Origin: an uncultured Gammaproteobacteria bacterium
GTDB lineage: Bacteria > Patescibacteriota > Patescibacteriia > UBA2196 > GWA2-42-15
Length of the DNA: 64,000 nt
Direction of reading: 5' to 3'
NCBI GenBank assembly: GCA_964573135.1
Contig: CAZNIO010000003.1
Location: 10,881 to 74,880 of the forward strand
Shown here: piece by piece, positions 1-12,001 of the stretch
Numbering within the stretch: the first letter of the stretch is position 1
Layout of the letters: each line of letters starts with the position of its first letter
Notes under the pieces: generated by a model
Database searches by the model: none
What the model saw: the letters and a program-made list of their open reading frames with translations, nothing else
What the model was told of the DNA's origin: nothing
Program-made: the position numbers and the translations under genes

Positions 1-684
1 TTTATCAACATTTTTAAGTTCTTTCTCCAGCCAATCAAGATCGCTTTGGACAAATGTTTCTCTGACTTTTCTTCGGCGAGATATATTAATAGCAACCTTT
101 AAAAAATCCCGTTCCTCTTTTTGTATAACGCTTATTTCACTGGGAGTAGATAGGTAAGTAAAAACTTCGGGGGTGGATAATTTTAAATTATTTTGCCTAA
201 TCTTATCTTGGACCATTTTAACAAGTGACTTAGTAACCCTCTCCTTATCGACATCAGCAATCCAGGTAACAGAGGGTCCAAGGCCGTGAGAAGCAGAATG
301 GTATTTTAGAGTTTTTTTAAATATTTTAACTAATTGTTGATTAGTCAACTTGGTTAGATTTAATTTTTTTAAGTACCTAGAATCCTTGAAGAACAGAGTG
401 GAGGTTGATTCTATTTTATCAATAACTTTTAGGGCCCAGGCTGGATTGGCTAACATTTTAGTAGCCATAAATTCTGATCCAGCATCTAACTCATGTCGCA
501 GAAAGCACATTTGAGAGAAGTCACCTTTGAATAGGGTGAAATATTGAGTGATTTTATCGCCAAAACCAAGTTTGCCCCATCGACGGAGCATATATATCAT
601 GGGCGGACCCATCATAAATAGGACATTTTGTGGTATGTCTTCAACGGCGACCCAACTGTTTTTTTGTCTTTGCTTGCTTGGCAT
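1..684 (-). CDS. PEP-utilising enzyme family protein (RPH/PpsA-like central-domain paralogue), N-terminal part only; C-terminus runs off the window start
   Basis: Minus-strand ORF with ATG at 682-684, open to position 1, so the track (complete ORFs only) omits it. N-terminus (MPSKQRQKNSWVAVEDIPQN...) parallels the N-terminus of the 511-aa protein at 1767..3302 (KYKWQVVAGDVNSP...). Separated from the upstream gene by an in-frame TAA plus one codon. Confidence 0.5.
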   Translation of the reverse strand, partial: MPSKQRQKNSWVAVEDIPQNVLFMMGPPMIYMLRRWGKLGFGDKITQYFTLFKGDFSQMCFLRHELDAGSEFMATKMLANPAWALKVIDKIESTSTLFFKDSRYLKKLNLTKLTNQQLVKIFKKTLKYHSASHGLGPSVTWIADVDKERVTKSLVKMVQDKIRQNNLKLSTPEVFTYLSTPSEISVIQKEERDFLKVAINISRRRKVRETFVQSDLDWLEKELKNVDK

Positions 685-687
685 AAA

Positions 688-1761
688 TTATATCTTCTTA
701 ACTATTCCCTTTTGCGCATCCACTTCTATTGTGTCGCCATCTTTAAAGACGCGAGTGGCAATTTTGGTACCAATAACACACGGGATATTGAGTTCACGAG
801 AAACAATGGCTGCATGACAAGTAATACCTCCTTCATCGGTAACAATGGCTTTGGCTTTTTTCATGGCTGGTAAAAAATCAGGTACGGTCATGGTAGTTAC
901 TAATATATTACCCTGGTTAAAGCTGGCTACTTCATCGGCATTAAATATGGCCTGCACTTGTCCTTGAATCTTTCCTCCTTGGCAAGCGACTTGCCCTTTA
1001 GCTTCTGAGATATCGATTTTAATTTCTAAATCATCATATTGAAAGTTATTTTCTCTTAAAAATTCGGCAAAATCTTTATCCTCCATTAAATCTCCTTGAA
1101 AGAAAAGATAACCACGCAACCTGGCCTTAAGCCGTTCAAGATCAATTGTCGTGTTGCCTGACATCATCGCTTTTAGCTCTTCAAACCCCACCACTCTGAC
1201 AAATTTCTTGTCTATATTATTCTGCTCCAGTAATATTTCAATTAAATTGCGCCAATAAGTGTCAATTATCTCAAATTTGCCTTCTGAAAAAACACGTGCT
1301 TGATACCACCTTTGGCACAATTCTTCTGCCACTTCGGGGTATAGTTTGAAAAACTCATCTCGCCATCTACTGGGTAGCATATTGGCGAAAACAACCCAGG
1401 GGAAAAATATTTTTAATAATCTAATTGATTCATCAAAGTTATCAATCATAGCCTGTAAGTTGCCCTGCTCTACTTTTTTAATCAAATTTACTACTTGGTC
1501 AGTAATAAGCTTAAATTGTTGCAAAGATTCCTTGGAAAAAATGGGGTCACTAAAGCCCTTCTTGGAAATATATTTTTTAACTTTTTCCATCTCATCAATA
1601 TCTCGATATATTTCGACGGCTCGACCGTTAAATCTGGTAATTTGCTTATGAATACCCATGCCAAACTCTCGCTCAAAATCCTCAGACACTAAAATATGCC
1701 AAAGACCGACCATGCTTAAAGTGACATCCCGAGTAAAGTATAGTTCAATTTTTTGATTCAT
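688..1761 (-). CDS. PEP-utilising enzyme mobile-domain (phosphohistidine swivel) protein, shorter paralogue lacking an ATP-binding domain
   Basis: C-terminal ...VTDEGGITCHAAIVSRELNIPCVIGTK... matches the PEP-utilizers swivel His motif. The central region parallels the C-terminal two-thirds of the 1767..3302 protein. Confidence 0.7.
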   Translation of the reverse strand: MNQKIELYFTRDVTLSMVGLWHILVSEDFEREFGMGIHKQITRFNGRAVEIYRDIDEMEKVKKYISKKGFSDPIFSKESLQQFKLITDQVVNLIKKVEQGNLQAMIDNFDESIRLLKIFFPWVVFANMLPSRWRDEFFKLYPEVAEELCQRWYQARVFSEGKFEIIDTYWRNLIEILLEQNNIDKKFVRVVGFEELKAMMSGNTTIDLERLKARLRGYLFFQGDLMEDKDFAEFLRENNFQYDDLEIKIDISEAKGQVACQGGKIQGQVQAIFNADEVASFNQGNILVTTMTVPDFLPAMKKAKAIVTDEGGITCHAAIVSRELNIPCVIGTKIATRVFKDGDTIEVDAQKGIVKKI

Positions 1762-1766
1762 ATATG

Positions 1767-3302
1767 CTAAATTAACTTTTTAACTAACCCCTGAGTAGCA
1801 TCGACTGCTACCTTGTCACCATCTTTGAGGACTTGGGTGGCGATTTTAGTACCAATCACACAAGGAATATTGAGCTCACGAGAGACAATTGAAGCATGGC
1901 AGGTTAGACCACCTTCATCGGTGACAATGGCAGAGGCCTTTTTCATGGCAGCTACTATTTGTGGAGTGGTGGCTTGAGAAACCAAAATATCACCATGCTT
2001 CATTTTAGACATATTAGAAGCCATATTAACAATTTTAACGGTGCCTTTGGCTTTGCCAGGGCAAGCAGAGTCCCCTTGGAGTTGTTTAATTTTTCTGGCA
2101 CCTGCGGTATTTTTTTCTTTGGTTACTTTTTTGTTATACCAGTCATGTGCTTCTTGTCCGGTTAAAATTGTAATGGTGCCATTGTCGTTGGGCAAACAGA
2201 TATGAAACTTATATATCTCATTTAAATAATGAATATCAAGATTATACTTATTAAGAAGAGCTTTTTCAATTAGATCAAAAGGAGTGGATCTAACTTGATT
2301 AAGTGAAAGATGCAAGCGTCTACCTATTTCACGCAAAAACTTTTCTGCATGATAATATGACTTACTTTGATAGTCTTTTCTTCTGGGTTTTCCCCAGACT
2401 AATTTACCGGCTAAAAGTAAGATTTTTCGATTAAAAATATCTGGTTTTAATTCTTTGAGATATTTCTGCTTGAGTTGCTTGGTTTTATCTCGCTTGGCTT
2501 TAAGGTTTTTGAGTTTTTTACTTGGAGAAAGATTGTCCTTTAAATGGTTTTGTACGAACTCAAGGTAGTTGCTTTCATCAAAGGCAGGGCCAGCATAGGC
2601 ATAATATACCCAGGCATATTTTTGAGTGTGTTTTTGTAGTTGTTTATAGAATACGGGGTATTGAATTTTTAAATTATGTATATCAATTTTTTTAAGATCC
2701 CTAATCAGCTTTTTATTGCTATATGATTTATCAATAAGCTTGAGTAATCCTTCTTCTTGCTCTGAGGCAAATGACTTGTGTAAAGGAGAAGTAAAAACTT
2801 CAAAGTATTTATGATAATCTTTTTTGGATGTATTTTTTTCTAAGAATTTTTTCAAATTCTTTTCAACAAATGAAAAGTCTTGAAAATCTAAGATAGGCAA
2901 AGCAACACCATAAGCGTATAAAGTGCTTTGTTTGTCACAAAAACTTCTAAGGATTGATATAAGCTGCTTGGGGGTGGATTTGGTTAAATCTTTGTTCCAT
3001 ATATTCTTATATGTCCAAGCATTAAACTCTTGGCCAATCTTTTCGGTTTTGTCAATGATATTTTCAATAAAGTCATTGTTTTTTTCAACCTTGCTTTTGA
3101 GTTGGTTGTAAGTATCAACCCAGGTTTTTAAATCAGTCAAATATTTCATATCTTTATCCCAAGCAACAGTAGCCATTAAGGGGCGCGATACTTTGAATAT
3201 CTGGTGATACTTAAAAAAAGCGCTAACCCAAATCTGGTTGCGGAAAAATGGTGAATTAACATCACCGGCAACAACTTGCCATTTGTATTTCTTGTAGGAC
3301 AT
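1767..3302 (-). CDS. Rifampin-phosphotransferase/PEP-synthase-like protein, central domain + C-terminal phosphohistidine swivel domain
   Basis: C-terminal ...TDEGGLTCHASIVSRELNIPCVIGTK... swivel motif, 511 aa. Lies in-frame with and 3 nt downstream of the ATP-binding-domain ORF. Confidence 0.75.
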   Translation of the reverse strand: MSYKKYKWQVVAGDVNSPFFRNQIWVSAFFKYHQIFKVSRPLMATVAWDKDMKYLTDLKTWVDTYNQLKSKVEKNNDFIENIIDKTEKIGQEFNAWTYKNIWNKDLTKSTPKQLISILRSFCDKQSTLYAYGVALPILDFQDFSFVEKNLKKFLEKNTSKKDYHKYFEVFTSPLHKSFASEQEEGLLKLIDKSYSNKKLIRDLKKIDIHNLKIQYPVFYKQLQKHTQKYAWVYYAYAGPAFDESNYLEFVQNHLKDNLSPSKKLKNLKAKRDKTKQLKQKYLKELKPDIFNRKILLLAGKLVWGKPRRKDYQSKSYYHAEKFLREIGRRLHLSLNQVRSTPFDLIEKALLNKYNLDIHYLNEIYKFHICLPNDNGTITILTGQEAHDWYNKKVTKEKNTAGARKIKQLQGDSACPGKAKGTVKIVNMASNMSKMKHGDILVSQATTPQIVAAMKKASAIVTDEGGLTCHASIVSRELNIPCVIGTKIATQVLKDGDKVAVDATQGLVKKLI

Positions 3303-3305
3303 GTG

Positions 3306-4244
3306 TTAAAGAGTGGTTATGGGTCGACTTTGGGTAATGTACAGTTTGCCTCCAACCTCAGCCCATTCAATATCACAGGGGAATTTATAGTGCTTCTCGA
3401 TGTGGCCACATAGCTGAGCGAGCTCAATAATTTTTTTACCCATCAATTTTTGCTGCTCTTGTTTACTTTTTGGGACATTTATAGTTTTGGTAGCTTTACC
3501 CACTTTGGTAATCATTTTTTCTTGCTTGGCAATATTAATATCCATGATAGACCAATCACGCTTGTCAATAACATAAGAGTCGGGGGTAACCTGGCCCGAA
3601 ACGATGGCCTCACCCAGCCCCCAGCCGGCCTCAATAATCATTTGATTTTTGTCTTGAGTGACCGGATGAACGGTAAAGGTAATACCGGAAACTTCAGACT
3701 GAATCATGGCCTGGATAACAACGGCTACTGATACATGTGACTTGAGCATTTTTTTTTCATGGCGATAGAAAATAGCGCGTGGAGTAAAAAGAGATGACCA
3801 GCATTTTTTGACATTGTTAATGAGTTCTTTTTCTGAAGTGTTTAAATATGTTTCCAGCTCCCCTGCCCAAGAGGCTGTGCTTGAATCTTCGGCAGTAGCT
3901 GAACTTCTAACAGCGACTAACGGTGTTTTTAATTTTTTAAACTCGCTGGTAATTTCTTGAGCTAAGTCCTCCGGGAATGCAGTTTTGTCAATCATGTCGC
4001 GAATAACATTCGAATACCTATCAACTGAATTGATATCTTGGTAATTGACATTAGCGAGTTGGGCGCTGATGTCTTGTTTTAAATCAGTTTCTTCTAAAAA
4101 TCTATCAAAGGCATGCGAGGTGAATACAAAGCCAGGCGGGACTGGGATTTTGGCGTTTGTCATTTCACCGAGTGACGCCCCTTTACCCCCAGCTAAGAGT
4201 ACATCTTTTTTGGTAATTTGCTTAAAAGTTCTAGTATATGACAT
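3306..4244 (-). CDS. PEP synthase/PPDK N-terminal ATP-binding (ATP-grasp) domain protein
   Basis: N-terminal ...KKDVLLAGGKGASLGEMTNAKIPVPPGFVFTSHAFDRF... is the classic PPDK_N nucleotide-binding signature. 312 aa equals the N-terminal module of RPH/PpsA. Confidence 0.75.
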   Translation of the reverse strand: MSYTRTFKQITKKDVLLAGGKGASLGEMTNAKIPVPPGFVFTSHAFDRFLEETDLKQDISAQLANVNYQDINSVDRYSNVIRDMIDKTAFPEDLAQEITSEFKKLKTPLVAVRSSATAEDSSTASWAGELETYLNTSEKELINNVKKCWSSLFTPRAIFYRHEKKMLKSHVSVAVVIQAMIQSEVSGITFTVHPVTQDKNQMIIEAGWGLGEAIVSGQVTPDSYVIDKRDWSIMDINIAKQEKMITKVGKATKTINVPKSKQEQQKLMGKKIIELAQLCGHIEKHYKFPCDIEWAEVGGKLYITQSRPITTL

Positions 4245-4305
4245 GCGATTATTAATTAATTGATTATGTATATAATTTTAGCAAATTTAGGTCTAAAAGT
4301 GAAAA

Positions 4306-4332
4306 AACCCAGTTCATTGTGAACTGGGTTTT
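4306..4332. terminator. Bidirectional intrinsic terminator hairpin (CCCAGTTCA/TGAACTGGG) flanked by A- and T-runs
   Basis: Perfect 9-bp stem with loop ttg and AAAAAA upstream/TTTT downstream. Sits between the lipoprotein gene end and the PPDK_N gene start. Confidence 0.6.
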
Positions 4333-4363
4333 GAGCTATATTAATAGAGAGTTATTAAACATG

Positions 4364-5899
4364 TTAGTTACATGAGCCAGCAGATACAGCGTCTCCAGTG
4401 GCTTGTGCTGATAGAGCATTTTCACAGCCAGCAACATCATTATATTGACAGAAGTTCGTTTTAACAGTTTCTGCATCAATACCATTAAACTTGTACTTAT
4501 TATTAACCATCCAAGTAGGACTGGCTCCTATGCCCAAAGATTCTGCAAGCTTTATACTTTCTGAATGTAACGCTTGCCCTTCACTTGAGTTAAAACAAGT
4601 TTTAACTTTTGGAAAATTAACTGCGCAAGATGAATAGTCTCCCTGAATATCTTTGTTCCTACACCAAATGTAGTCCATATAGTTAGTAGGGTAGTGCTTG
4701 ATAGCACAAAGCTCTCTGATATTTTCATCAACTTCAGGCTGACCATGCAAAGAATTGAAAGTACCATCTGGGTTTTCTGAAGCAATGTAATTTATATGAA
4801 AATCCATATTATTGCCAAAGTTGTCTAAAACTTCTTCCATGGCGTCTAAGGCTTTTGTACCATAAGGACATTGGCTCATTACAAATACATCAAGTTGCTT
4901 GGCTACTTCCTCTCGACAAATAAGGTTGCCTGTGCAATCAGTGTCATCACAATCAGTAAGACCATTGCCTGTATCATCAGTATTGTTATCGCAAATTTCC
5001 TTTGTGGGGTTGTGAGTTGCACCAATTGCGAGTGTAAACATACCATTAACTTCTTTGAGATAGCGTTCAACTTGTGAAAAATTATCTGTATCTTTAACAT
5101 CACTTTCTAAAAGAACTGCTGGGAGCTGAGTTAATTCATTTTCTTCATAAAATTTCTTGCCTTTCTTTGAAGTATAGTCTAATTCTTCAAATTCAATACC
5201 AGAAAAAGTATTTTTAAGTTGCTCTTGTAATTGAATTGTGTCACACTCTGGCTTGGTACAACGAGAGTCATTTACAATATATGCAGTAAACTTTTTATCT
5301 TGTGGTAAATCCTTACATTTCGCCGGCTTATCATCAGTAGCTTCACAAATCTTTCTTTGCAATCCAATTTCTGTACGCGGACCAGTATATAGCTCATCTG
5401 CCATGTAAAAAGTTGGGCTACCAGATGCTTGAACTTCATTTGATTTTAGAATGCTGGTGGAAAAGAGATTTTTGCCCTCGTCACCTTCGGCACAAGTTTT
5501 AATTGTGTTGTAATCAACTCCATTCTCATTGGAGCATGACTCAAAGCTTGATTTTAAATCTTGATAGTTCTTGTTTTGGCAACTTACATAATCCCAAAAT
5601 TTATCTGAAAAATGCTCTTTAACACAAAGCTGGTAGATATTACCCTCAACTTCTGGCTCGCCGTGGAGAGATTGAAAAGTGCCGTCATTATTGTCAGTAG
5701 CAATATATTCAACATTAAAATTAACATAGTCAGTGAAATCTCCCATTATCTTATAGACTAAATCTTCGGCCTGGGAACCATAAGGACATTGGCTCATAAC
5801 ATACAAGTCAAAATTAATAGGATCTCCAGATACTTTCTTGATACAACCGGTAGTTACAAAGGCTAATAAAAGCAGAGATAAAATAACAATTTTTTTCAT
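4364..5899 (-). CDS. Cys-rich secreted lipoprotein with two tandem thiol-reductase-like (GILT-like) repeats
   Basis: Lipoprotein signal MKKIVILSLLLLAFVTTGC. Two internal repeats (YVMSQCPYGSQAEDLVYKIMGDF... / VFVMSQCPYGTKALDAMEEVLDNF...), each with ...SLHG(E/Q)PEV(E/D)xNI..LC... resembling GILT-family signatures. More than 30 Cys. Confidence 0.55.
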   Translation of the reverse strand: MKKIVILSLLLLAFVTTGCIKKVSGDPINFDLYVMSQCPYGSQAEDLVYKIMGDFTDYVNFNVEYIATDNNDGTFQSLHGEPEVEGNIYQLCVKEHFSDKFWDYVSCQNKNYQDLKSSFESCSNENGVDYNTIKTCAEGDEGKNLFSTSILKSNEVQASGSPTFYMADELYTGPRTEIGLQRKICEATDDKPAKCKDLPQDKKFTAYIVNDSRCTKPECDTIQLQEQLKNTFSGIEFEELDYTSKKGKKFYEENELTQLPAVLLESDVKDTDNFSQVERYLKEVNGMFTLAIGATHNPTKEICDNNTDDTGNGLTDCDDTDCTGNLICREEVAKQLDVFVMSQCPYGTKALDAMEEVLDNFGNNMDFHINYIASENPDGTFNSLHGQPEVDENIRELCAIKHYPTNYMDYIWCRNKDIQGDYSSCAVNFPKVKTCFNSSEGQALHSESIKLAESLGIGASPTWMVNNKYKFNGIDAETVKTNFCQYNDVAGCENALSAQATGDAVSAGSCN

Positions 5900-6034
5900 A
5901 TTTATACAAGGTTAATTAATATATAGAGGTATTTAACATTTCTTTAGGTTAACATTTATGGTAAAAAATGGCAAATATAAGAGAGATGGGCTAAAAGCCA
6001 TCTCTATATAGCTAAATTGATACTAATTATTGCC

Positions 6035-7618
6035 CTAAGATTCGAGGATTTTATGTAAATCAATGCCAATCATTTTTTCTGACTTTTCCAAGCCAAGCAT
6101 AGATAGTACGGTGGGGGCAATATCAACTAAAGCGCCTTTTATTTTGGCGGTATGTAACTCTCGGTTTGTGTGAGGAGTAAATTTCCCCTTATATTCATCT
6201 TTGACAAGAATGGCAGGTACGGGAAAATTGCTGTGTTCTTTGTCAATTTGACCTGTTTCTACATTAATGACCTCTTCAACATTGCCGTGGTCGGCAGTAA
6301 TTAATACTTGACCACCTTTTCTAAGCGCAGCTTCAGTAATCTCTGATAAACATTTGTCGGTTGCTTCAAGGGCTTGCTTGCAAGCCTCAAGATTGCCAGT
6401 ATGGCCGACCATATCAGGGTTGGCAATATTGGCAACGATAAAATCAAATTCATTCTTACCTAAAACTGAAAGAATATTGTATTTAATATCTTCAACAGCC
6501 ATGGCCGGTTGCTGATCATAGCTTTCGACTGCAGGAGAAGGAATAAGCAGATGCTCTTCTCCTGGATAAGGATCCTCTTTAAGCCCATTTAAGAAAAAAG
6601 TGACATGAGCATATTTTTCGGTTTCAGCAATATGGAATTGTTTTAGATTATTATCTGAAAGTATTTTAGCCAAAGGGTTATCAATAACAAGCTTGGGGAA
6701 AGCGACTTCAATGGGCAAACTCTTTTCATAAAGAGAAAAGCCAGTAAATAGTAAATTATTAATCTTTTTACCTCGATCAAAATATTTGAAAGAATCTGCA
6801 ACAAAACTTTGAGTTAGCTGACGAGCGCGATCAGAACGGAAGTTGAAAAAAATTACGGCATCGTTGTCTTGAATTTTTCCAACTGGCTTGCCTTGGCGCA
6901 AAACAGCAACTGGTTTGAATTCTTCATCATATATCTTTTGGCTATATGAGCTTTGCAGGGTTTGAATGGGATTTTCACAATTAGCGGCGGCTTTGCCAGT
7001 CATAGCATCATATGACAATTTTACTCTATCCCAGTTGTTATTTCTGTCCATACCAAAATATCTGCCAGAAAGACTGGCTATTTGTCCACAGCCAAGTTTA
7101 TTTATCTCTTGTTCAAGCTTTTCTAAAAACTCGACTCCCTTGTCGCGCTTGGTATCACGTCCATCAAGAAAAAGGTGAAGGAAGGTATTATTATTAAGTT
7201 TATTTTGGGTAGATAGCTCAAGTAAGGCTGAGAGATGATTGGAGTGAGAATGCACACCACCGTCGCCAAGAAGACCCACAAGATGTAAATTTGATTTGTT
7301 GTTCTTAACGTGATTAATGGCTTTAAGAAAAGCAGGGTTTTCAAAAAAAGCTCCGCTGGATATTTGTTTATTTATTTTGTCTAGGCTTTGGAGAAAAATT
7401 TGACCAGAGCCGATGGTCAAATGACCAACTTCAGAATTGCCCATTTTGCCCCAAGGCAAACCAACGGCGGGGCCAGAGGCCTGCAGCAAAGTAGCGGGAT
7501 AATTTTGTAATAAATAATCCCAATATGGTAAATTGGCGCTGGTTATGGCGTTGCCGACAGTAGGGGCAGCGACTCCCCAACCGTCAAGGATAACCAGAAG
7601 AACTGGCTTAGAATTCAT
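6035..7618 (-). CDS. gpmI: 2,3-bisphosphoglycerate-independent phosphoglycerate mutase
   Basis: Motifs VILDGWG, GNSEVGHLTIGSG, HLVGLLGDGGVHSH, ADHGN. Start placed at the internal ATG 7616-7618 (MNSKPVLLVILDGWG) because the Ser-rich 42-aa extension of the track ORF (to 7744) is unlike iPGM N-termini. Alternative start 7744. Confidence 0.85.
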   Translation of the reverse strand: MNSKPVLLVILDGWGVAAPTVGNAITSANLPYWDYLLQNYPATLLQASGPAVGLPWGKMGNSEVGHLTIGSGQIFLQSLDKINKQISSGAFFENPAFLKAINHVKNNKSNLHLVGLLGDGGVHSHSNHLSALLELSTQNKLNNNTFLHLFLDGRDTKRDKGVEFLEKLEQEINKLGCGQIASLSGRYFGMDRNNNWDRVKLSYDAMTGKAAANCENPIQTLQSSYSQKIYDEEFKPVAVLRQGKPVGKIQDNDAVIFFNFRSDRARQLTQSFVADSFKYFDRGKKINNLLFTGFSLYEKSLPIEVAFPKLVIDNPLAKILSDNNLKQFHIAETEKYAHVTFFLNGLKEDPYPGEEHLLIPSPAVESYDQQPAMAVEDIKYNILSVLGKNEFDFIVANIANPDMVGHTGNLEACKQALEATDKCLSEITEAALRKGGQVLITADHGNVEEVINVETGQIDKEHSNFPVPAILVKDEYKGKFTPHTNRELHTAKIKGALVDIAPTVLSMLGLEKSEKMIGIDLHKILES

Positions 7619-7868
7619 AAGTATGGTCGATGGGTTGTCCGTCGATAATTTGCTTGACCTTATTATCCATAATGGCATCGTATTCTTGAATGGAGCGCAA
7701 ATATTGCTCAGACTTGATGTCGTCTTGCTTTTTTTCGAGTTCAATAACTTTCTGATTGCGCTGATAGAGAATATCGGTGATGGTCAGAATTACCTTTTCC
7801 TTGTTCTCTTCTGGAACTTGTTTTTCTTCCAAGTATTCTTCAATTGTTTTTTGGCTTGGATTGTCCAT
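7608..7868 (-). CDS. Hypothetical small charged protein (86 aa)
   Basis: ORF between the AMP phosphorylase and gpmI genes, same strand, 11-nt overlap with the gpmI start. Coiled-coil-like charged composition. No recognisable family. Confidence 0.4.
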   Translation of the reverse strand: MDNPSQKTIEEYLEEKQVPEENKEKVILTITDILYQRNQKVIELEKKQDDIKSEQYLRSIQEYDAIMDNKVKQIIDGQPIDHTYEF

Positions 7869-7883
7869 AAAAATATATGACCT

Positions 7884-9380
7884 TTATTTAATACAAATAA
7901 TAGTATTGTTTTTGGTGGCCAGGCGGCCTAAATCAAGGCGGCTCTGATTTTCTCCATAAAGCGTATAGAGTTTCTGCCCCTTGATGATTTTATCGCCAAG
8001 GCGACAGTGCATGTGAATGCCAGCCAACTTTTCATGAGGAGCACCAAGATTGAAGCAAATTTCCACAATAGCTTTATTATCAATATGTTTAACTTTACCA
8101 CTCTTTTTTGAATGAATTTCATAACGCAAAGCGCCTAAAGCAACGGCGTCTGCTTTAATTGTGCCCTTGCCACCTTGAGCACGGATAATTTCAGCCATTT
8201 TCTTGGCAGCAACACCAGCCTCAATTTGATGCCTGGCAATATTTGTACCCCGTCCTTTTGGACAAAAACCTTTAAGTTCTAAAAGTTGCCCTGCAAGATG
8301 AATGGCTTTTTCCTCAAGATCTTTTGGTCTAAGCTCGTGCCTTTGTAATACACGCAAGACATCCCTGGCTTCAAGGGCAGGGCCAACACCGGCGCCAACT
8401 GGCTGATCGGCCTTAGTGGTAACCACTTTAACCTTTATCTTAAACATTTTGCCAAGAGCGATAAATTTCTTGGCTATACTTTTGGCGGTTTTTAAACTGT
8501 GAACTTTGGCGGTTTCTCCGTAAGGTAAATCAATAATTAAGTAATCAACGCCCATGGCAACTTTCTTGGCCATAATGGAAACGATCATCTTATCATAGGT
8601 TTCTAAAGATAGGGGTTTTTCAACATGGATAATTTTGTCATCAGCCGGCGCCATATTGATTCCCCCTCCCCAGACAAGACAGGCGTGAGTTTTTTTAACT
8701 ATTTTATTAATCTTATCGACGGAATGTTCAACAGGTGCTAAAACTTCCATGGTATCGGCTGTGCCAGCTGGAGAGGTGATAGCGCGTGATGAAGTTTTGG
8801 GGATGTAGAGACCGAGAGAGGCAATAATAGGGATAACAATCATGGTGGTGCGATTGCCAGGAATACCACCAATTGAATGTTTATCAACTACCTTTATTTT
8901 CATATTCATTTTGTCGCCACATTCAGCCATGGCGCGAGTCATATAATAGAGTTCTTTTAAGGGATATGGTTTTATAAAACCAGAAGCAACATAATAAGTG
9001 GTTTCGATTTTACCCAATTTACCGGTAGAAATATCGTGCATGATAGAAAAAATTTCATCATAACTTAAATCATGACCCAATAGCTTTTTATTAATAGCTT
9101 TAACTGATTCGGGCCGGGATTGTAAGATAACTTCAACAATATCCTGATCATCAATTGATTTTTTTTGCCAAACTTCTTTAAAAAGACCAACTTGGCCAAA
9201 GTTAACTTTACTGTTGGTATATTGGACTATGGCGGTAATTGATTTTTTACGACTCCATTTCAGAAGGACTCGGTCGCCTGGCATAATACCCTGACTGTCA
9301 GCTTCCTTTTCGCGCAAAACTATGATGGGATCACCACCAGAAGAAAAGTCTAATTTTTTTGATTTATAAAAAATTTTCAT
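7884..9380 (-). CDS. AMP phosphorylase (thymidine phosphorylase family, archaeal-type)
   Basis: 498 aa with an N-terminal extension and glycosyltransferase family 3 / pyrimidine-nucleoside phosphorylase core (KVVDKHSIGGIPGNRTT...). Operonic with RuBisCO and R15P isomerase. Confidence 0.8.
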   Translation of the reverse strand: MKIFYKSKKLDFSSGGDPIIVLREKEADSQGIMPGDRVLLKWSRKKSITAIVQYTNSKVNFGQVGLFKEVWQKKSIDDQDIVEVILQSRPESVKAINKKLLGHDLSYDEIFSIMHDISTGKLGKIETTYYVASGFIKPYPLKELYYMTRAMAECGDKMNMKIKVVDKHSIGGIPGNRTTMIVIPIIASLGLYIPKTSSRAITSPAGTADTMEVLAPVEHSVDKINKIVKKTHACLVWGGGINMAPADDKIIHVEKPLSLETYDKMIVSIMAKKVAMGVDYLIIDLPYGETAKVHSLKTAKSIAKKFIALGKMFKIKVKVVTTKADQPVGAGVGPALEARDVLRVLQRHELRPKDLEEKAIHLAGQLLELKGFCPKGRGTNIARHQIEAGVAAKKMAEIIRAQGGKGTIKADAVALGALRYEIHSKKSGKVKHIDNKAIVEICFNLGAPHEKLAGIHMHCRLGDKIIKGQKLYTLYGENQSRLDLGRLATKNNTIICIK

Positions 9381-9811
9381 AAAATACTATTTAAAACAAG
9401 TGATATACACAATCCGAAAATAAATCCACTTATAATCTCAAAATATGTATGTCCACTAATATCCAATAATCTACCATCTTTAAAAACTCGCTTAACACCT
9501 TTAATACCACTTTTGACCCATGATTGCTGTTCTATTTCCTGTTTTTCTCTATCTTCTAAGAGATTGTAGATAAAAAGAAGCATAACAGTAAAACAAAAAC
9601 TAAAAATTGAGCTAAGGCCATAATCACACCAAATGAGATATAGAACGCCTGTCAATACAGCGGTGTGTGTACTGGGAGCACCACCAGCCCATTGATAAAC
9701 CCAAGTGGCTGTACGTAGCTTTTTCTTTCGTCGATTGGCTAATAATCTAACAATGAATTTCAATGATTGACTCAAAAACCAAATAATAACAGGAAATAGA
9801 ATAAACTTCAT
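9377..9811 (-). CDS. Divergent PAP2-family membrane protein
   Basis: Motifs WAGGAPSTHTA and SGHTYFE resemble divergent PAP2 (acid phosphatase/haloperoxidase-related). Four predicted TM segments. 4-nt overlap with the AMP phosphorylase start. Confidence 0.6.
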   Translation of the reverse strand: MKFILFPVIIWFLSQSLKFIVRLLANRRKKKLRTATWVYQWAGGAPSTHTAVLTGVLYLIWCDYGLSSIFSFCFTVMLLFIYNLLEDREKQEIEQQSWVKSGIKGVKRVFKDGRLLDISGHTYFEIISGFIFGLCISLVLNSIL

Positions 9812-9839
9812 AAATAGTTAGACTAAACTGATAATCATT

Positions 9840-11078
9840 TTATGACCAATATTTTAATGCTTGCTGTAGCTCTTTATGCTGGGTGGCATATTTTGAGAAA
9901 TTTTCTTGCTGGCTGACTGCTTCAACTGCTTGCTGACAGGCTTTAGCACCGGCAATTGGTCCGTCAGGGTGACCATGAAGTCCCCCGCCGAAGTTTATAA
10001 CAATATTTGGACCTAGAATTTTAACTAGATCAGGTACGAGTCCTGGATGCAAGCCGCCTGAAGCAATAGGTAAAGTGGGCTTAATTTTTCCCCAAGGAGT
10101 AGTCACGGCTTCGTTAATGGCATCAACTGTTTCCTTATCGCCTTCCATTTTACCGACTACGGTGCCGGTATGTAGTTGATCAATGCCACATAACCTGGCA
10201 AGCTTGGCTAAGAGGAGCATGGTCATGCCGTGGCGTGGATTTTTAGTAAACATGGAATGACCAGCGCGATGACCGTGTATGATCAAACCTAAATTTTGAT
10301 TTCTTAAAAATTGTACGTTATCTAAGCCACAAACCACCAGGTCAATCATAACTATTTTGCCACCATGCTTTTTAACTAATTTAGCACGCTTGAGCATGAT
10401 ATCAGCTGGACCAGTCACGTTGAAGACGTGTACTTTTTTGTGTCCGGTAACTTTTTGCGCTTGTTTTTTTAGTTTTAAAACTTGCTTAACACGATCTTCA
10501 AATTTATTGAATTTCATGTCGGTCAAATTTTCATCGTCCTTAACTAGATCAATGCCATTTGCCCAAATGTCATAGGTTAGTTGGGCGTGCTGTTTGGAGG
10601 AAAGCCCGAGCTTTGGCTTAATGATTGAGCCAATGATGGGCCTCTCCTTTATATCTAAGTAATTTCTGATGCCAACAATGCCAAAGGCGGGTCCTTGGAA
10701 AGAATTTAGATATTTGTCCGGGAAATGAATATCTAGAAGTCTTAAATTACTAATAATTTTCATGGAGAAAACATTGCCAGCTAAAGCGGAGAGAAGCTGA
10801 GTAATATTACCTAACTCAAAAAGATCTAGGGGATAGGCAATATGAGCAATTTTTTTATGATAATCAAGTTTAAAAATCTTTGGACCAAGGCGGCTAATTG
10901 TTTTTTTATCTAAAGTAGTTAGCTTAGTCCAAGTACCAATAGATGATTCCTGGGCAACTTTAACCGAAGCGGTTTTTAAACCCAAAGGACTTTCAATGTG
11001 ATAGATAGCAACAAGATGATCCTTCAAAGAGGGTTTAGTATTGAGTTTTAAATAAGGTGATTTCATGATTAAAGCCAA
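9840..11078 (-). CDS. rbcL: Ribulose-bisphosphate carboxylase large subunit, form II/III-like
   Basis: NGIDLVKDDENLTD (GxDFxKxDE-like active-site region) and GGGLHGHPDG near the C-terminus. 412 aa. Confidence 0.8.
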   Translation of the reverse strand: MALIMKSPYLKLNTKPSLKDHLVAIYHIESPLGLKTASVKVAQESSIGTWTKLTTLDKKTISRLGPKIFKLDYHKKIAHIAYPLDLFELGNITQLLSALAGNVFSMKIISNLRLLDIHFPDKYLNSFQGPAFGIVGIRNYLDIKERPIIGSIIKPKLGLSSKQHAQLTYDIWANGIDLVKDDENLTDMKFNKFEDRVKQVLKLKKQAQKVTGHKKVHVFNVTGPADIMLKRAKLVKKHGGKIVMIDLVVCGLDNVQFLRNQNLGLIIHGHRAGHSMFTKNPRHGMTMLLLAKLARLCGIDQLHTGTVVGKMEGDKETVDAINEAVTTPWGKIKPTLPIASGGLHPGLVPDLVKILGPNIVINFGGGLHGHPDGPIAGAKACQQAVEAVSQQENFSKYATQHKELQQALKYWS

Positions 11079-12001
11079 TTATATTGTTTTTTAAACTTAT
11101 TAATCTCACTTGGTTTAATAATTCCAAATTCAGTTATATAGCCTGTTATAAATTTGGCAGGAATTCTACCAAAAGCATAGTTTATTATCTTCAAGCCCTT
11201 AGGGGCTTTTGGCCAAATTTCTTTTTCATCCCTGATTTCTATTTTCATTTTCTTATCATGTGTACTTTTAAGCAGAGATCCGCACAGATAAAAAGGAATC
11301 TTTGATGTATGGGCTGCTAGAGCTATGCCAAAACTACCAATCTTATTCAAAGCCGATCCATCGGGTAAAATAACATCAAAACCTAAGAACACTTTGTTGA
11401 TTTTAATATTATCTCCCGAAATATCTGAGACCAAAAATGGAGCGGCTGAATCAACAACCATGGTATTATTAATTTTATGTTTGGCCAAATTAGTTGAAGT
11501 AGTCCTACCTTGGAATAGGGGTCGAGTTTCATCATTGTATACATGAAATTTCTTTTTATCTCTTTTGGCTTGGATCAAAATATTTTCTACAGTACGTGAA
11601 TGACAGTGAGTAAAGATGTTTTCTTTACTTTTTATTAGGCTCCCACCATGGGCGGTGATTTTTTGCCCATTACCATGTAGTAAGGCGGAAAAATCCTGTA
11701 CGTACTGGCGGGTTAATTTTTTTAAATCATTAACTTGAATAAGAGTAGCCTTGATTTTGGTGCTCTGTTTAAGTTCTGCATTCAAATATTTAAAAGCATT
11801 AACAGTCAGTGGCTCATTGGGTCTTGCTTGAGCTAGACTCTCCCCTACTCTTTTAGCTTCAGCTAAATACTTTTTGGTATCTTTCGTTTTGAAATTAATC
11901 AAATAATCTTGCCAAGCAGAAAGACTGGCACGACAAATGTTACTGGCGCCTTGAATTTTAATGGATTGAATATCTTTAATTGTTTGATTTAAGTTGGCCA
12001 T
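11069..12001 (-). CDS. Ribose-1,5-bisphosphate isomerase (eIF-2B alpha/beta/delta-like family)
   Basis: e2b2-like sequence (…GASNICRASLSAW…, …HSRTVENIL…, …CGSLLKS…). Sits upstream of RuBisCO as in the AMP-salvage pathway. Confidence 0.7.
   Translation of the reverse strand: MANLNQTIKDIQSIKIQGASNICRASLSAWQDYLINFKTKDTKKYLAEAKRVGESLAQARPNEPLTVNAFKYLNAELKQSTKIKATLIQVNDLKKLTRQYVQDFSALLHGNGQKITAHGGSLIKSKENIFTHCHSRTVENILIQAKRDKKKFHVYNDETRPLFQGRTTSTNLAKHKINNTMVVDSAAPFLVSDISGDNIKINKVFLGFDVILPDGSALNKIGSFGIALAAHTSKIPFYLCGSLLKSTHDKKMKIEIRDEKEIWPKAPKGLKIINYAFGRIPAKFITGYITEFGIIKPSEINKFKKQYNWL

Follow-up and report, generated by a model that had tools for sequence, protein, structure and literature searches.

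Gene content of the operon

We analysed a 64,000-nucleotide stretch of DNA, hereafter the window (contig CAZNIO010000003.1 of assembly GCA_964573135.1, forward-strand positions 10,881 to 74,880), from an uncultured bacterium placed in the Patescibacteria, or candidate phyla radiation (CPR). We focused on a group of genes at its start whose products resemble rifampin phosphotransferase (RPH) and phosphoenolpyruvate (PEP) synthase. Four minus-strand open reading frames (ORFs) are present there, as confirmed by the ORF listing and by translation. The first to be transcribed, ORF1 (3306..4244), encodes a stand-alone ATP-grasp protein of 312 aa (PF01326, PPDK_N; E 7e-100). It is followed by ORF2 (1767..3302; 511 aa), here called U1, which joins a helical N-terminal domain, approximately residues 1-400 (2103..3302) and the presumed substrate site, to a swivel phosphohistidine domain at residues 435-505 (1788..2000; PF00391, E 1.9e-25). 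The fold of the helical domain is predicted to be homologous to the rifampin-binding domain (RIF-BD) of RPH, and the catalytic residue of the swivel, His469 (codon CAT, 1898-1896), lies inside the motif T461-x-x-G-G-x-x-x-H469. ORF3, or U2 (688..1761; 357 aa), belongs to a shorter class with a reduced helical N-domain and a swivel at residues 281-352 (706-921; PF00391, E 5.7e-27), in which the codon of His316 occupies 816-814. The fourth gene, U3, is represented by its first 228 codons (1..684); the window part has no Pfam match because the swivel domain of U3 falls outside the window.

The operon can be followed further on a 94.9-kb metagenomic contig (L001; JGI 3300005915, Ga0075122_10000042), of which positions 1-11761 are identical to the reverse complement of window positions 1-11761. 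We found that the complete operon spans 14.6 kb and contains 11 genes, namely one ATP-grasp gene, nine genes for proteins with a substrate domain and a swivel histidine (357-538 aa), and one 226-aa gene without a family match. The complete U3 gene is at 11078-12634 of L001, and U3 to U8 (518, 497, 360, 538, 496 and 516 aa) are all encoded on the same strand, each with a C-terminal PF00391 domain. The 226-aa gene comes after U8 and is itself followed by U9 (513 aa, PF00391), past which the contig ends after one small convergent ORF. U4 to U9 and the swivel of U3 lie beyond the window start and are seen in L001 and in a second contig, L039. Window positions 1-4332 are the promoter-proximal third of this operon and hold three of its nine units. 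All eleven ORFs are intact, ORF1 is the sole nucleotide-binding component of the operon, and no further PPDK_N or swivel gene occurs across the remaining 60 kb of the window. An earlier note on this DNA had reported a cluster of four genes; those four ORFs, their Pfam assignments and two junctions of the form TAA-codon-ATG are correct as described, but the cluster is cut by the window and has eleven genes on the source contig.

The ATP-grasp subunit and its swivel partners

The best sequence match of ORF1 in the PDB is PEP synthase 8a8e, over the whole length of ORF1 (E 4e-72), and the protein also aligns from one end to the other with RPH-Lm's ATP-grasp domain (5fbs/5hv1; E ~6e-58). In the alignment to 5fbs, ORF1 residues K21, R113 and T132 correspond to RPH-Lm Lys22, Arg117 and Thr136, for which mutagenesis shows an ATP-positioning role (PMC4844700). 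The C-terminal sequence of ORF1, SRPITTL, corresponds to RPH residue 316, the end of the RPH ATP-grasp domain. ORF1 therefore has the form that the charging component of a two-component dikinase should have, being a stand-alone ATP-grasp protein that ends at a domain boundary and has its ATP-site residues aligned. Its closest relatives carry Kuenenbacteria labels.

For the substrate units, we combined sequence comparison with structure prediction. The AlphaFold2 (AF2) model of U1, built with 65 homologues, has a pLDDT of 92, and its top Foldseek matches in the PDB are RPH-Lm structures (5fbu/5fbt/5hv1), covering RIF-BD plus swivel (E ~1e-12, TMq 0.58-0.60, ~590 aligned columns) at a structural-alignment identity of ~13%. 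The U2 model (pLDDT 95.5) again has RPH-Lm as its best PDB fold, and here the match is partial (E 6e-11, TMq 0.34-0.46). The arrangement of an RPH-type domain followed by a C-terminal swivel, as expected of the second component of such a dikinase, is thus predicted for U1 and, in part, for U2. Outside the window, U9 aligns by sequence over residues 134-510 to the RPH-like NCBIfam models PRK06241.1-3. The swivel itself matches PEP synthase in the PDB by sequence (E 6.5e-28), and the swivel of enzyme I of the phosphotransferase system (PTS) also matches.

The phosphocarrier motif T/S-x-x-G-G-x-x-x-H, as defined for this superfamily (PMC12167813), is found in both complete window units, as T461-DE-GG-LTC-H469 in U1 and T308-DE-GG-ITC-H316 in U2. 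All units of the window and operon carry GGxT[CS]HAA or GGIICHAA, and the swivel histidine is invariant in 86/86 surveyed units. The remainder of the proteins is far more variable. Between the nine operon units, the N-domains share 19-33% identity and the swivels 46-66%, and two length classes can be told apart, long units of 496-538 aa and short ones of 357 and 360 aa. When the 86 units were aligned globally with MAFFT, conserved columns were found only in the swivel, plus two just before it, the N-domains being too divergent. Within the U1 family, 42 columns are invariant across 65 sequences at ~50% identity, and one near-invariant motif, K309-D310-Y311-Q312 (KDYQSK at 309-314), resembles block 9 of RPH by inspection. 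In a weak pairwise local alignment to the rph product of L. monocytogenes (L043), U3 residues K317-D318-Y-R-K321 stand opposite R666-E667-Y-P-K670; the corresponding U1 alignment ended before the motif. The KDYQ motif of U1 and the KDYRK motif of U3 may represent the catalytic block 9 of RPH (YREYPK, R666/E667/K670).

The units are old paralogues that form orthogroups, and not recent duplicates. For 62 of 71 units, the best matches of both the N-domain and the swivel are in other genomes, and the DNA repeats among units are 64-80% identical and without long identical tracts. The ~357-aa family of U2 orthologues is widespread in Patescibacteria and among proteins labelled Micrarchaeota. We also considered concerted evolution or gene conversion of the swivels, as a possible sign of co-adaptation to a shared ATP-grasp, and rejected it, as the swivels follow N-domain orthology.

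One sequence difference affects U1. At window positions 2897-2898 the window has GC, where contigs from two other samples (L002, ENA ERZ27315495; L003, JGI 3300005916) have a single A, which shifts the frame and divides U1 into 137 and 362 aa. L002 and L003 are 99.96% identical to the window sequence and both contigs break at the same positions; the change is either a population variant in which U1 is inactivated or a shared error.

Comparison with characterised phosphotransferases

We compared the operon with the systems in which a separate ATP-grasp protein is known to serve a swivel partner. In HpeHI, the stand-alone ATP-grasp protein is HpeI, and an RPH-type substrate domain and a swivel histidine are combined in HpeH; both components are needed, a change of the histidine abolishes activity, and HpeH alone transfers phosphate from 4-phosphoacetophenone to acetovanillone (PMC12167813, a 2025 study). 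CreHI and the phenylphosphate synthase PpsAB are pairs homologous to HpeHI (PMC12167813). As in these pairs from Rhodococcus (HpeHI), Corynebacterium (CreHI) and Thauera/Aromatoleum (PpsAB), the ATP-grasp protein encoded here (compare HpeI and PpsB) is separate from its RPH-type/swivel partners (compare HpeH and PpsA), which carry the T/SxxGGxxxH motif, and by analogy the expected chemistry would be ATP + substrate-OH -> AMP + Pi + substrate-phosphate. In contrast to the characterised systems, which are 1:1 pairs encoded in phenolic catabolic clusters, here one ATP-grasp protein is accompanied by nine divergent partners in a reduced CPR genome, the partners come in two size classes (~357 and ~500-540 aa), and relatives fuse one ATP-grasp domain to up to five units.

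Outside the swivel, the substrate subunits in the window show no sequence kinship to HpeH, CreH and PpsA, which are ~45% identical among themselves. The NCBIfam model PRK08296 (~600-aa proteins with a C-terminal swivel), which we take to represent PpsA/HpeH-type proteins, covers only residues 397-510 of U1, at 65-101 bits against cut-offs of 578-730. The window units appear to constitute a separate, distant branch from HpeH/CreH/PpsA.

RPH itself (PDB 5FBS/5FBT/5FBU/5HV1; PMC4844700) shares its three modules and their order with ORF1 plus ORF2, but has them in a single chain of ~865 aa in place of separate proteins. No sign of rifamycin-binding residues was seen in the proteins described here. 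The proposal in the earlier note that these two genes together make up an RPH architecture is upheld by the alignment of ORF1 to the RPH-Lm ATP-grasp domain, by the best match of the U1 model to RIF-BD plus swivel, and by fused homologues of 832-834 aa. Neither protein reaches the RPH equivalog models (NF041857, NF000283): ORF1 scores 281.8 bits and ORF2 52.8 where one cut-off is 999, and 196 and 40 bits where the other is 1700. PEP synthase (also named PpsA) and pyruvate phosphate dikinase (PPDK) have an ATP-grasp and a swivel closely related to those described here; in these enzymes the swivel is central and a PEP/pyruvate TIM-barrel follows at the C-terminus, whereas here the swivel is C-terminal and the barrel domain PF02896 is found in none of the four window proteins. 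Every score against the curated equivalogs of PEP synthase, PPDK and RPH falls far short of its cut-off (348 versus 598 bits for PEP synthase). The window proteins do not count as PEP synthases or as rifampin phosphotransferases proper. The PTS, in which enzyme I and HPr feed many enzymes II, offers an analogy only: it too has one charging component and many substrate-specific ones, and the enzyme I swivel is homologous to the swivels here, but its donor is PEP and not ATP, unrelated proteins act as its carriers and substrate components, and it is coupled to transport.

Gene junctions and in-frame stop codons

The three gene junctions in the window are all tight. Junction 1 (3300..3308) reads TAA(3308-3306)-CAC-ATG(3302-3300) and junction 3 (682..690) reads TAA(690-688)-TTT-ATG(684-682), both in frame, and junction 2 (1762..1769) consists of TAG(1769-1767) and 5 nt that precede the ATG at 1761, out of frame. 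Across the operon the spacers measure 3, 5, 3, 1, 1, 9, -4, 2, 4 and 16 nt, and TAA is the stop codon of 9/11 genes. The earlier note had offered a split or pseudogenised gene, a sequencing error or programmed readthrough as readings of the in-frame stop between ORF1 and ORF2, and had pointed to the same geometry at junction 3. The geometry exists, but a meaning beyond chance is not borne out, as the in-frame share is at the chance rate in the full operon (3/10 junctions), and among the tight array-gene junctions of 30+ related loci 13/57 are in frame (23% versus 33% expected; binomial p = 0.12). The same junctions, with their TAA codons, are found letter for letter in L002, L003 and L004, contigs from other samples with assemblies of their own, and the independently assembled L039 (ERZ27315536) has the same gene calls. 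Because the same junctions recur in independent assemblies, an assembly error is very unlikely.

The relatives point in the same direction. The 120 closest relatives of ORF1, taken at 90% clustering, are all stand-alone PPDK_N proteins (309-338 aa, 69-100% identity), and for ORF2 the best relatives are, in 116/120 cases, stand-alone proteins of ~510 aa; both ORF1 and ORF2 terminate where their homologues terminate. Most related loci have their ATP-grasp gene downstream of the swivel genes, as the last gene of the array, so that the order of ORF1 followed by ORF2 is not conserved and, because of that position, an RPH-order fusion is impossible in most of them. True fusions of an ATP-grasp with a U1-type unit do exist (P0008, 834 aa; P0089, 832 aa), and these have a linker of 11-16 residues from SRPITTL to YKKYKWQV, where here a single codon separates stop and ATG. 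Neither in-frame conservation among relatives nor a linker-compatible fusion, the marks of readthrough or recoding, was found at these junctions.

As to whether relatives are fused or split, the closest are split, and fused forms are common among more distant ones (52-66% identity); relatives thus do not uniformly have separate genes, the state that, according to the earlier note, would have made the in-frame geometry coincidental. It is fair to describe ORF1 and ORF2 as the split version of a sometimes-fused enzyme if this is meant as an evolutionary description, with the split being old, conserved and functional-looking and without a lesion. Both TAA junctions that lie in frame are of the ordinary compact operon type and separate genes that are terminated individually; translation of the downstream genes probably proceeds by coupling or re-initiation. 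A Shine-Dalgarno-like motif is missing from 9/11 array genes; as it is present in only 3/26 other genes of the same genome, its scarcity at the junctions is uninformative. Merging the genes, flagging them as pseudogenes or reporting a recoding site would be unwarranted.

Related arrays and fusions in other genomes

Next, we examined the distribution of the system by searching GTDB species representatives with ORF1, which returned 30 loci. Their labels include Kuenenbacteria, Parcubacteria, Falkowbacteria, Peregrinibacteria, Absconditabacterales, Saccharibacteria, Nanoarchaeia and Micrarchaeia; the few Proteobacteria labels are probably binning or labelling errors. In most of the 30 loci a stand-alone ATP-grasp gene is found beside one to seven tandem swivel units within 10 kb, with repertoires of units that vary strongly from genome to genome. 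One-to-many arrays are common in Patescibacteria and are also present in some DPANN-labelled archaea.

Fusions of several units into one polypeptide were also observed. The locus L007 (Logan SRR23592405) encodes at 1442-8101 a 2219-aa protein with one PPDK_N domain and five swivels, open in the standard code, together with two double units. Among the best 150 cluster representatives of ORF1 at 50% identity, 91 have one swivel, 30 have two, seven have three and one has four, a clustering that inflates the share of fused forms, as the nearest 120 at 90% clustering are all split; representatives P0257-P0282, like the L007 protein, are single polypeptides that join one ATP-grasp to two to five units and are open in the standard code. 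We regard the multi-swivel fusions as Rosetta-stone evidence for several swivel units sharing one ATP-grasp. Weak 'Epimerase_2' Pfam matches in the polyproteins were dismissed as spurious, with at least one overlapping a swivel and none having a significant stretch.

Arrays of relatives often contain candidate phosphatases. A family of ~300 aa with the RHG...H motifs of histidine phosphatases, below Pfam thresholds, is present at 10 loci (L012, at 1906-2943, L014, L015, L017, L020, L021, L025, L030, L032 and L034), haloacid dehalogenase (HAD) hydrolases are present in four related arrays (L012, at 1289-1900, and three others), and the L007 array contains LMWPc and His_Phos_1 genes. None of these phosphatase-like genes, whether of the RHG family, HAD, LMWPc or His_Phos_1, is found in the window's operon.

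Close homologues of both components also occur on contigs labelled Nanoarchaeia, Micrarchaeia/Micrarchaeota and Norongarragalinales (L021, L037, L006 and named matches), and the L006 homologue adjoins an archaeal-type gene for ribosomal protein S3Ae. This distribution suggests exchange between CPR bacteria and DPANN archaea.

A proposed one-to-many dikinase and its alternatives

Taken together, the sequence comparisons and structural models lead us to propose, with a probability of roughly 0.65, that the operon of this Patescibacteria (CPR) bacterium specifies a small-molecule dikinase of two components in a one-to-many format. The ATP-grasp subunit would bind ATP. The swivel histidine of any of the nine partners would then dock on it, take the beta-phosphate and release AMP and Pi, as in RPH and HpeHI, and the swivel would return to its own N-domain to phosphorylate the compound bound there. 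Each of the nine units would have its own substrate, which we presume because the N-domains are so much more divergent (19-33% identity) than the swivels (46-66%). The hint in the earlier note of phosphotransfer in trans is well founded, because a split architecture and trans phosphotransfer are established in the superfamily; it has precedents in HpeHI, PpsAB and CreHI, and relatives fuse one ATP-grasp to one to five swivels. In our literature search, we found no description for CPR or DPANN of one-to-many arrays or of multi-swivel polyproteins. What is known already is the family and its two-component principle, and the one-to-many format is apparently undescribed.

Several observations weigh against this interpretation. 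Outside the swivel, the N-domains of the window units have no sequence similarity to HpeH, PpsA, RPH or the PDB by phmmer, profile hmmsearch or hhalign; such searches extended only to the swivel and the helix just before it, with hhalign covering residues 339-510 of U1. The homology of the substrate domains of the window units is drawn from predicted-structure matching, which for the short class is partial (TMq 0.34-0.46). The Arg-Glu...Lys of block 9 is matched by a weak pairwise alignment only, and U6 and U8 seem to lack the acidic residue of this block. The frameshifted U1 allele in other samples would mean that part of the population can do without at least one unit or is losing it. Finally, a single ATP-grasp serving all nine partners is presumed, and further ATP-grasp genes could be located elsewhere in the genome, of which ~95 kb was covered.

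In one alternative, the swivel proteins would be charged by the ATP-grasp protein and act on macromolecules such as proteins or glycans, or as regulatory phosphocarriers. Glucan water dikinase and the PPDK-derived kinase VadK belong to the wider superfamily, as does PTS enzyme I, whose swivel matches ours. The phosphatases embedded in related arrays (the RHG family at 10 loci, HAD at 4 loci, LMWPc in L007) would suit such a role as well; the histidine-phosphatase superfamily includes the phosphohistidine phosphatase SixA. We nevertheless consider macromolecular or regulatory targets unlikely: the sole solved structure that matches the N-domain is the small-molecule-binding RIF-BD, no carbohydrate-binding or protein-interaction domains were detected in the window proteins, and all characterised enzymes with RIF-BD and swivel (RPH, HpeH, CreH, PpsA and PigC/HapC) use small molecules (PMC12167813, PMC4844700). 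Alternatively, the swivel proteins might operate independently of the neighbouring ATP-grasp protein, exchanging phosphate between compounds or using another donor, for example PEP, so that their clustering with ORF1 would be only partly functional. That HpeH performs phosphotransfer by itself (PMC12167813), the 1:9 stoichiometry, and the position of some swivel genes several kb from the ATP-grasp gene in related loci all fit this idea. We give it little weight, however, since ATP-grasp and swivels are joined in one polypeptide in very many relatives, the ATP-grasp gene almost always adjoins the array, and the window units have no PF02896 PEP/pyruvate TIM-barrel.

The remaining alternatives concern the integrity of the genes. 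Programmed readthrough, or a recently interrupted fused gene, would yield an RPH-like ORF1-ORF2 fusion and a U2-U3 fusion, and two window junctions are indeed in frame with a single intervening codon, while relatives include ATP-grasp plus U1-type proteins of 832-834 aa and multi-unit fusions. We judge this highly improbable on the grounds that in-frame junctions are not enriched (3/10 and 13/57), the nearest 120 relatives of ORF1 are stand-alone, the gene order is reversed in most relatives, and the 11-16-aa linker of natural fusions is missing here. Moreover, the stop is TAA, with T as the next base at junction 3; TAA followed by T is the most efficient termination context in bacteria. Errors in assembly or sequencing, or a pseudogene cluster in decay, would account for the allele frameshifted inside U1 in other samples, but are scarcely credible for the operon as a whole, with junctions identical across independent assemblies, the same gene calls in L039, eleven intact ORFs, conserved orthologues for each unit and intact catalytic motifs. 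The one-to-many small-molecule dikinase remains our preferred reading.

More tentatively, we suggest that the operon is one example of a modular kinase system of Patescibacteria and some DPANN-labelled archaea, in which one ATP-grasp charging subunit would serve up to nine or more substrate-specific phosphohistidine carriers, including polyproteins, with repertoires that vary and with embedded phosphatases. Such a system might serve the capture of scavenged host metabolites or the neutralisation of small molecules from hosts or competitors.

Flanking features and neighbouring genes

Upstream of ORF1 we observe an intrinsic-terminator-like hairpin on the minus strand (4304..4332), composed of a 13-pair stem AAAACCCAGTTCACAATGAACTGGGTTTT and a T-run TTCACTTTTA, which ends the upstream lipoprotein gene and marks the upstream boundary of the operon. 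It is the only strong terminator-like hairpin on the minus strand within window positions 1-4500, where two short ones (7 and 5 pairs) are also present, both within coding sequence. A promoter-like site, TTCACT-17-TAAAAT with a TG extension (4275..4303, minus strand), lies ~30 nt upstream of the ORF1 ATG and is a candidate by consensus match. The best sigma-70-like match in the region, TTGAAA-17-TATAAT (11/12), is located elsewhere, at 2241-2269 on the minus strand, inside the U1 coding sequence and ~480 nt upstream of U2; it may be a chance occurrence in AT-rich DNA or an internal promoter.

The 226-aa gene between U8 and U9 lies outside the window (L039 15754-16434, equivalent to L001 19884-20564), and neither Pfam, NCBIfam nor the PDB held a significant or nearly significant match to its product. 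On visual inspection, the protein shows a glycine-rich loop, GQGGECIVF, as well as DDSPDNF and YYLDSL motifs, reminiscent of a small kinase-like fold.

Beyond the terminator-like hairpin, the minus strand carries at 4364-5899 a gene for a predicted lipoprotein of 511 aa, with LLAFVTTGC at its N-terminus and two GILT/DsbA-like thioredoxin-fold repeats. Further upstream, at 6035-11998, are minus-strand genes for iPGM (6035-7744), AMP phosphorylase (7884-9380), a DUF212 protein, a form III RuBisCO (~9840-11066) and an e2b2/IF-2B-like isomerase; the set of iPGM, AMP phosphorylase, form III RuBisCO and e2b2 constitutes the archaeal-type AMP salvage route. The lipoprotein gene separates these AMP-pathway genes from the dikinase operon. 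A functional tie to AMP salvage, attractive in that a dikinase yields AMP, was not relied upon, as this neighbourhood is shared by one other locus only (L026, Kuenenbacteria).

Implications for CPR and DPANN metabolism

The cluster is of greater interest than its in-frame stops, being three times larger than had been described and part of a widespread uncharacterised system. In public annotation, stand-alone ATP-grasp homologues are labelled 'pyruvate, water dikinase' (JGI), and the names given to swivel homologues are 'PEP-utilizing enzyme' and 'phosphoenolpyruvate synthase'. These labels are misleading because the proteins have no PEP/pyruvate-binding domain, and counts of PpsA or PPDK derived from them would introduce a false gluconeogenic step into metabolic reconstructions of CPR and DPANN organisms.

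Genomes of ~1 Mb are typical of CPR bacteria. If the genome considered here is of about that size, the 14.6-kb operon takes up more than 1% of it, spent on nine divergent RPH-like modules behind one ATP-grasp gene. The array is a natural test of how one ATP-grasp domain could recognise many swivel partners, and it offers a set of new candidate small-molecule kinases. If the broader proposal is true, such a battery in ~1-Mb genomes could capture scavenged host metabolites by phosphorylation with a high driving force (ATP -> AMP + Pi), or, in an alternative use, neutralise small molecules from hosts or competitors. Overall, the recurrence of the system as arrays and as polyproteins points to an important, uncharacterised phosphorylation capacity in metabolically minimal organisms.

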